A stretch of DNA of 64,000 bases from NCBI RefSeq assembly GCF_000027125.1, contig NC_017626.1, one strand, 5' to 3'. The translations under genes and the position numbers were made by a program. Shown here one piece after another: positions 48,369 through 49,502 of this stretch. Below the pieces are notes generated by a model that saw nothing but the letters and a program-made list of their open reading frames with translations, searched no databases and was not told the origin of the DNA. How positions within the stretch are numbered: the first letter of the stretch is position 1; each line of letters begins with the position of its first letter. Source of the stretch: Escherichia coli 042. Lineage in GTDB: Bacteria > Pseudomonadota > Gammaproteobacteria > Enterobacterales > Enterobacteriaceae.

Positions 48369-49502
48369 GTGAATGACGCTATCCCTCGCCCGCAGGCGAA
48401 AACCCGTAAGGCGCTGACGCCGCTATTAGAAATCCGCAACCTCACCAAATCCTACGATGGTCAACATGCGGTGGATGATGTCAGCCTGACCATCTACAAA
48501 GGTGAAATCTTCGCGCTGCTGGGCGCATCCGGCTGTGGCAAGTCCACGCTGCTGCGTATGCTGGCAGGTTTCGAACAACCTCCTGCCGGACAGATAATGC
48601 TTGATGGCGTCGATTTGTCACAGGTACCGCCTTACCTGCGCCCCATCAATATGATGTTTCAGTCTTACGCGCTGTTTCCGCATATGACCGTGGAACAGAA
48701 TATCGCTTTTGGCCTGAAACAGGACAAATTGCCGAAAGCGGAAATTGCCAGCCGGGTCAATGAGATGCTCGGGCTGGTGCATATGCAGGAGTTCGCCAAA
48801 CGCAAACCGCATCAGCTTTCCGGCGGTCAGCGACAGCGTGTGGCACTGGCCCGAAGCCTTGCCAAGCGCCCGAAACTATTACTGCTCGATGAGCCGATGG
48901 GCGCGCTGGATAAAAAGCTGCGTGACCGGATGCAGCTTGAAGTGGTGGATATTCTGGAGCGTGTCGGTGTGACTTGTGTGATGGTCACCCACGATCAGGA
49001 AGAGGCGATGACCATGGCGGGGCGCATCGCCATTATGAATCGTGGGAAATTTGTCCAGATTGGCGAACCGGAAGAGATCTATGAGCATCCGACCACCCGC
49101 TATAGCGCTGAATTTATCGGTTCGGTTAATGTCTTTGAAGGTGTACTCAAAGAGCGTCAGGAAGATGGTCTGGTGCTTTATTCGCCGGGACTGGTGCACC
49201 CACTGAAAGTCAATGCAGATGCTTCAGTGGTTGATAACGTGCCGGTACACGTAGCGCTGCGTCCGGAAAAAATCATGCTTTGCGAAGAGCCGCCCGCCAA
49301 TGGTTGTAACTTCGCGGTGGGGGAGGTGATACACATTGCCTATCTCGGCGATCTTTCGGTATATCACGTTCGTCTGAAAAGTGGGCAGATGATCAGCGCC
49401 CAGCTACAAAACGCCCATCGTCATCGTAAAGGGTTACCGACCTGGGGCGATGAAGTGTGTTTGTGCTGGGAAGTGGACAGCTGTGTGGTGCTGACGGTTT
49501 AA
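48369..49502 (+). CDS. potG: Putrescine ABC transporter ATP-binding protein PotG (377 aa), GTG start
   Basis: (M)NDAIPRPQAKTRKALTPLLEIRNLTKSY...GASGCGKST...LSGGQRQR; in-frame GTG at 48369. Confidence 0.92.
   Translation: MNDAIPRPQAKTRKALTPLLEIRNLTKSYDGQHAVDDVSLTIYKGEIFALLGASGCGKSTLLRMLAGFEQPPAGQIMLDGVDLSQVPPYLRPINMMFQSYALFPHMTVEQNIAFGLKQDKLPKAEIASRVNEMLGLVHMQEFAKRKPHQLSGGQRQRVALARSLAKRPKLLLLDEPMGALDKKLRDRMQLEVVDILERVGVTCVMVTHDQEEAMTMAGRIAIMNRGKFVQIGEPEEIYEHPTTRYSAEFIGSVNVFEGVLKERQEDGLVLYSPGLVHPLKVNADASVVDNVPVHVALRPEKIMLCEEPPANGCNFAVGEVIHIAYLGDLSVYHVRLKSGQMISAQLQNAHRHRKGLPTWGDEVCLCWEVDSCVVLTV

Follow-up and report, generated by a model that had tools for sequence, protein, structure and literature searches.

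The window analysed here, a 64,000-nucleotide stretch of the E. coli 042 chromosome (contig NC_017626.1), spans the E. coli chromosome segment from glnH to ltaE. The best-matching complete genome, that of strain GN25, is colinear with window positions 39001-64000 and 98.8% identical over these 25 kb, and the gene order around rimK, potFGHI and ybjT-ltaE is the same in K-12 MG1655. Four genes of the window concern us: ybiT, encoding an ABC-F ATPase (8384-9976, plus strand, 530 aa); rimK (45345-46247, plus strand, 300 aa); potG, encoding the ATPase of a putrescine ABC transporter (48369-49502, plus strand, 377 aa); and ybjT (62488-63918, minus strand, 476 aa). The initial annotation had given each of them a GTG start, at positions 8384, 45345, 48369 and 63918, respectively, and all four positions are exact in the sequence. 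It had also described these GTGs as hidden inside longer open reading frames (ORFs), a description that holds for potG and ybjT and not for ybiT and rimK, whose supplied ORFs open at the GTG itself, as it had also stated and as can be seen in the ORF list.

The potG GTG occupies positions 48369-48371 on the plus strand and is the annotated start in K-12 (position 894991), GF131 and GN25. The GGAG core of its Shine-Dalgarno (SD) sequence, at 48358-48361 within tgccGGAGAGca, lies 7 nt before the GTG, and its duplex with the anti-SD has a calculated energy of -6.6 kcal/mol. As initially reported, the six-frame ORF of potG is 27 codons longer and reaches an ATG, which we locate at 48288-48290. This ATG directly follows an in-frame TAG and gives an ORF of 404 aa; its best SD-like site has an energy of -3.5 kcal/mol and is 18 nt away. 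The 81-nt extension (48288-48368, plus strand) is non-coding and forms part of the potF-potG intergenic region. PotG has no solved structure of its own; only that of its paralog PotA (378 aa) was found. Residue 10 of PotA pairs with residue 39 of the 404-aa ORF, so that the PotA N-terminus falls next to the GTG and not next to the ATG.

Orthologs of potG were sought with a degenerate DNA pattern of the Walker-A region against one genome per species, which yielded 120 loci, 90 of them clear Enterobacterales orthologs with an N-terminus of the form [V/L/M]ND(A/V)IPRPQ.... In these 90 species, which like the ybjT set were fetched by exact peptide patterns and are thus biased to close relatives, the homologous start codon is GTG in 78, TTG in 10, ATG in 1 and GTT in 1, and the single GTT ortholog has a GTG one codon upstream. 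A ccGGAGag motif is found just 5' of the start codon in nearly all of them. An in-frame stop immediately precedes the start codon in 28 of the 90 species, and in those 28 an earlier start is therefore impossible; in 38 of the 90 there is no upstream in-frame ATG, GTG or TTG. Where the frame is open, the peptides encoded by the extension are unrelated between genera. E. albertii, the sister species, lacks an ATG at the position of E. coli 48288.

Within E. coli, ATG 48288 is invariant in six diverse aligned sequences, which leaves a small probability for a minor long PotG isoform confined to E. coli. The pattern of substitution in these six sequences is nevertheless not the same in the extension and in the gene: the 81-nt extension has 10 variable sites, distributed over codon positions 1, 2 and 3 as 5, 1 and 4, against 0, 1 and 10 for the 11 variable sites in the next 112 nt of true potG coding sequence (Fisher p=0.024). 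The 27 extra codons of potG are potF-potG spacer that is open by chance in E. coli. We also considered an out-of-frame ATG at 48373, which heads a 14-codon ORF, as a competing start and rejected it; this ATG needs a T at the synonymous position of an Asn codon, found in about half of the orthologs, and judging from these sequences it is probably incidental.

The spacer itself is predicted to be structured. RNA folding of positions 48265-48385 gave -41.2 kcal/mol (z = -2.1) with two hairpins on the plus strand, hairpin 1 at 48289-48318 (UGCCGGACGGG...CCCGCCGGCA), which has the upstream ATG at its base, and hairpin 2 at 48322-48338, with GCGCACCAUUAUGGUGCGC as its core. The stem of hairpin 1 persists in O157 and E. 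albertii despite base changes, and that of hairpin 2 is invariant in six E. coli sequences, with variation in its loop bases only. Other genera, among them Leclercia, Pseudescherichia, Pseudocitrobacter, Pantoea and Dickeya, have different spacer sequences that still fold into one or two GC-rich hairpins before the conserved SD and GTG. No Rfam match was obtained for the spacer, and a scan for forward-strand intrinsic terminators found none there; neither hairpin is followed by a T-run. In the malE-malF and hisJ-hisQ pairs, REP hairpins lie between the cistrons, after the gene for the ABC binding protein, and stabilise the upstream mRNA. The potF-potG arrangement resembles these in that the potF stop is separated from the potG SD by a stretch with one or two GC-rich hairpins. 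It differs in that its hairpin is not a REP copy: the window has just one copy of it, allowing for up to 3 mismatches, and no repeat is annotated there in K-12. By analogy, the spacer hairpins may protect potF mRNA or damp read-through.

At the other end of the window, the ybjT GTG (63916-63918, minus strand) is the annotated start in K-12 (position 908282) and GN25. It lies directly behind ltaE, which ends in ...HWRAFLAR* with a TAA stop at 63931-63929 on the minus strand. The stop overlaps the ybjT SD in TAAGGAGG (63924-63931, minus strand), in which TAA is followed by GGAGG; the SD is separated from the GTG by a 5-nt spacer and has an energy of -12.6 kcal/mol, and the gap from the stop to the GTG is 10 nt. 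The claim that the ybjT ORF extends a further 21 codons upstream is correct, but the codon heading it is not the ATG that had been proposed; it is a GTG at 63979-63981 (minus strand), and the stretch contains no ATG. This GTG heads a 497-aa ORF and is not a start site, its anti-SD energy being -1.3 kcal/mol. The better SD placement that the initial annotation attributed to the GTGs is thus borne out at both genes (-6.6 against -3.5 kcal/mol upstream for potG, -12.6 against -1.3 kcal/mol for ybjT). As the long ybjT frame is open to the edge of the window, the figure of 21 codons depends in part on the position of that edge. These extra codons are 3' coding sequence of ltaE in another frame, in which GTG 63981 was created by a synonymous CGC to CGT change in an Arg codon; K-12 has GCG at that position and another fortuitous GTG at -10.

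No ybjT was found by tblastn in the potG loci, and ybjT contexts were collected by searching metagenome contigs with a 15-letter protein pattern, which gave 120 loci with 61 distinct sequence contexts. GTG is present at the homologous codon in 58 of the 61, with TAAGGAG at a fixed distance 5-6 nt before it, and in the other three the start is shifted by 1-2 codons (ATG in two, GTG in one). Of 60 complete contexts, 32 have an in-frame stop no more than 6 codons before the start; 34 contexts are without any upstream in-frame start, and a GTG at -21 is seen in only 5 of the 61. In two E. coli-like contexts a TAG or TGA stands 7 codons upstream. These species comparisons exclude that the extension of either gene, potG or ybjT, is conserved coding sequence. 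YbjT has no solved structure, and only distant short-chain dehydrogenases were matched; counted from the GTG, RILVLGASG, the first strand of its Rossmann fold, starts at residue 4, as is typical for the fold.

The geometry of the ltaE-ybjT junction, in which the upstream stop overlaps the downstream SD, is conserved across the contexts. In this overlap and in its short gap the pair resembles, in geometry, translationally coupled gene pairs with stop-SD overlaps. The 10-nt gap and the overlap suggest that translation of ybjT is coupled to that of ltaE: ribosomes finishing ltaE would re-initiate at, or couple to, the ybjT GTG.

For rimK and ybiT, the ORF and the gene begin at the same codon. The rimK GTG (45345-45347, plus strand) is preceded by the SD GAGAGGTG (45333-45340, plus strand), with a GAGG core at 45335-45338, a 6-nt spacer and an energy of -9.7 kcal/mol. 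The ybiT GTG (8384-8386, plus strand) has an AGGA SD at 8373-8376 on the same strand, with a 7-nt spacer and an energy of -4.1 kcal/mol; an in-frame TAA lies 13 codons upstream of it with no start codon between. Crystal structures of RimK (5zct and 4iwx) span residues 1-300, and seven solved structures of YbiT (9njf and others) use residues 1-530. The constructs behind these structures follow the annotation and are not independent proof of the native N-terminus; they show only that proteins with these N-termini fold and function. The alignment of YbiT with its paralog YheS starts at residue 1.

The four GTG starts are already present in reference annotations. The proposed comparison with curated annotation came out in favour of the GTGs, the K-12 MG1655 RefSeq record giving potG (377 aa), rimK (300 aa) and ybjT (476 aa) from the homologous codons. 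The automatic annotation of GN25 has all four GTG starts, including that of ybiT (530 aa), and the automatic NCBI annotation of GF131 has the same potG start. In the protein collection that was searched, the 377-aa form of PotG occurs on at least 1000 contigs, as does the 476-aa form of YbjT, compared with 49 contigs for a 404-aa PotG and 7 for a 486-aa YbjT. The long forms survive as a minority of automated calls.

Published initiation data bear on the four genes unequally. The annotated-start table of PMC9825163 sets peaks from INRI-seq, an in vitro initiation assay, beside the Ribo-RET (retapamulin ribosome profiling) peaks of Meydan et al. 2019. In this table, all five INRI-seq replicates show a peak for ybiT (K-12 position 855963), whose Ribo-RET peak is 34.95; for rimK (891967), INRI-seq peaks occur in 3 of 5 replicates and the Ribo-RET value is 26.2. 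The potG start (894991) gives weak INRI-seq peaks, in 2 of 5 replicates; the Ribo-RET value is 0 for both potG and ybjT, and the INRI-seq value is 0 for ybjT. The INRI-seq templates begin about 30 nt 5' of the annotated start, which makes the potG signal blind to the upstream ATG, and the method may not resolve the potG GTG from the out-of-frame ATG 4 nt downstream. The tetracycline ribosome-profiling supplements (PMC4909307) have no entry for any of the four genes, and hence propose no new start for them. The suggested check against N-terminal peptides succeeded for one gene: in the accessible part of PMC13245402, Table S1 lists rimK with a GTG start, the N-terminal peptide MKIAILSR, and Ribo-RET and INRI-seq support. 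In the same part of that table, potG, ybiT and ybjT, searched by gene name or b-number, are unmatched and have no peptide, an absence that carries little weight. No N-terminal peptides of PotG or YbjT were found in the literature accessible to search, and a search for the original PotG size or start codon returned nothing useful. We infer that the native N-termini of PotG and YbjT lie at these GTGs.

Could translation begin elsewhere in these genes? For ybiT and rimK the candidates lie downstream, where in-frame starts might be used instead of the GTGs or alongside them. Such codons exist, ATG 8408 (codon 9) in ybiT and TTG 45360 (codon 6) in rimK, from which slightly shorter proteins would result; according to the accessible part of PMC13245402, moreover, E. 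coli genes commonly have alternative starts close to one another, and of the 101 downstream sites that it counts about half yield proteins shorter by <15 aa. We consider their use here very unlikely. The rimK peptide listed in the accessible part of that paper begins at the GTG, and PMC9825163 assigns the Ribo-RET and INRI-seq peaks in ybiT and rimK to their annotated starts. In ybiT, ATG 8408 has no SD-like sequence visible just before it, and a start at Met9 would drop the first beta-strand of the ATPase domain, as judged from the alignment with YheS. For potG and ybjT the candidates lie upstream, and we regard it as extremely unlikely that the longest ORFs are genuine, in full or in part, with PotG starting, exclusively or additionally, from ATG 48288 (404 aa) and YbjT from GTG 63981 (497 aa). 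Both frames are open in the window, the potG ATG is shared by all six aligned E. coli sequences, some deposited annotations carry the 404-aa PotG or a 486-aa YbjT, and no in vivo initiation peak is recorded at the potG or ybjT GTG. Against this, a usable SD is missing at both upstream codons, and a stable hairpin has ATG 48288 at its base. The potG extension, besides its substitution pattern unlike that of coding sequence, loses its ATG in E. albertii, has no homolog in other genera and is closed off by the stop before the GTG in 28 of 90 species; that of ybjT overlaps ltaE, begins with a GTG missing in K-12 and is interrupted by stops in some E. coli-like sequences. The two ORFs behave as instances of longest-ORF over-extension, a known artefact of six-frame translation and of early gene callers, in which a frame is followed to a fortuitous upstream start: in both, the extension is not conserved as coding sequence and is without a ribosome-binding site. 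The ybjT case departs from plain over-extension in that the window edge, together with a synonymous ltaE change specific to the strain, partly determines how long its extension is.

A different kind of explanation would treat the four GTGs as an unusual grouping of non-ATG starts in one region, with a regulatory significance common to all. When the annotation that NCBI generated automatically for E. coli GN25 is transferred to the window, the 62 coding sequences start with ATG in 55 cases, GTG in 6 and TTG in 1, so that 7 of the 62 genes do have non-ATG starts. Three of these seven had been missed by the initial annotation, namely the GTGs of ybjL (43197, minus strand) and ybjM (43467, plus strand) and the TTG of gsiA (19946, plus strand). 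However, about 14% GTG and 3% TTG starts are expected in E. coli (bioRxiv 10.1101/063800), and the window is not enriched in GTG, its 6 of 62 (9.7%) being below the genome-wide figure of about 14%. The genes also belong to separate operons on both strands and have unrelated functions, and we give the cluster explanation practically no credence.

Taken together, potG, ybiT, rimK and ybjT almost certainly each start translation at an ordinary SD-led GTG. Annotation, experiment and species comparison agree with the original proposal that the genes initiate at these codons, and that the longer potG and ybjT ORFs are not real genes. SD complementarity is present 5-7 nt upstream of all four GTGs; a start codon stands at the position of the ortholog N-terminus in 89 of 90 species for potG, and a GTG does so in 58 of 61 contexts for ybjT; and an experimental initiation signal is available for rimK and ybiT, limited to weak in vitro INRI-seq peaks for potG and absent for ybjT. 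All four are alike in kind to the canonical SD-led GTG sites of about 14% of E. coli genes, with which they share a GTG read by the initiator tRNA, an SD 5-7 nt upstream and a conserved N-terminus. At such sites the initiator tRNA would read each GTG as formyl-methionine, with the SD pairing to the 3' end of 16S rRNA. Reporter work assigns GUG and UUG to the canonical start codons, a group with initiation at 10-100% of that from AUG (10.1101/063800). The value of the result is one of annotation hygiene only, the longest-ORF choice adding 27 spurious residues to PotG and 21 to YbjT; the biology of the four genes is unchanged, and the reference annotations already carry the right starts.

The only mildly notable point is that potG and ybjT keep weak start codons across distant relatives. 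From the alignments, we give about equal credence to selection actively keeping these weak starts, and thereby keeping the amount of the ATPase subunit, or of the downstream enzyme, low and in fixed proportion to the upstream gene product, and to its not doing so. In potG the weak start would act with the hairpin-containing spacer, and in ybjT with the stop-SD overlap, to limit the ratio to the upstream product. The retention of GTG or TTG in potG and of GTG in ybjT is a small clean example that could serve studies of subunit ratios within operons. Counted across phylogenetically related sequences, as are all the start-codon conservation figures given here, the potG start is non-ATG in 89 of 90 species and ATG in 1 of 90. 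Among 85 aligned potG orthologs, A hardly ever stands first in the start codon, although at third codon positions the majority base is common to only 64% of sequences on average.

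The non-ATG start of potG (GTG, 48369-48371, (+)) is almost universally retained among the Enterobacterales species compared. Comparison of the potG loci L011-L128 showed that the gene begins with a codon other than ATG in 89 of 90 species (GTG in 78, TTG in 10), despite strong divergence at third codon positions. Similarly, ybjT (GTG, 63918-63916, (-)) starts with GTG in 58 of the 61 contexts. Judged from these sequence comparisons, the weak start codons of potG and ybjT look like the product of selection.

Only 4 nt past the potG GTG, and 11 nt from the Shine-Dalgarno sequence, an out-of-frame ATG opens a 14-codon ORF (48373-48417, (+)) encoding MTLSLARRRKPVRR before its stop. 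This ATG requires that the Asn codon of potG be AAT, which is true of only about half of the potG orthologs; the ATG at 48373 and its ORF are therefore probably incidental.

Upstream of the potG start, RNA folding places two hairpins on the (+) strand that occupy the potF-potG spacer (48289-48318 and 48322-48338). In other genera the spacer differs in sequence, yet it likewise forms a GC-rich hairpin, or two of them, ahead of the conserved GGAGAG and the GTG. The hairpins have no match in Rfam, and their assignment as a REP element was rejected; they may serve in mRNA stabilisation or attenuation.

Mapping the automatic NCBI annotation of GN25, an E. coli genome colinear with 39001-64000, onto the window added three non-ATG starts that were absent from the list in the initial annotation, namely the GTG codons of ybjL (43197, (-)) and ybjM (43467, (+)) and the TTG codon of gsiA (19946, (+)). 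The ybjH start (38608, (-)) is ATG in the window versus an annotated ATT in GN25 (locus L004, 1272-1556).

Compared with K-12, PotG (48369-49502, (+)) carries four substitutions, S72P, D271Y, D282N and R364C, which is rather many within one species for a conserved ATPase. PotH (49512-50456, (+)) has 314 residues in both the window and GN25 versus 317 in K-12, its N-terminal tail being shortened by a 3-codon deletion that changes AAQSKPPGGFKLW to AAQPKPFKLW.

The small RNA RybB (41354-41432, (-)) is the sole Rfam match above the gathering threshold within the window. The ybjP-ybjQ gap spans 2,627 bp here (57602-60228) versus 125 bp in K-12, and the inserted segment includes a truncated pentapeptide-repeat pseudogene (approximately 58216-59454) in the GN25 annotation. 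In the same annotation, a gene for a RelE/ParE-family toxin lies between rimO and dgcI together with a helix-turn-helix gene (approximately 29160-29864, (-)); the two are likely to form a toxin-antitoxin pair.
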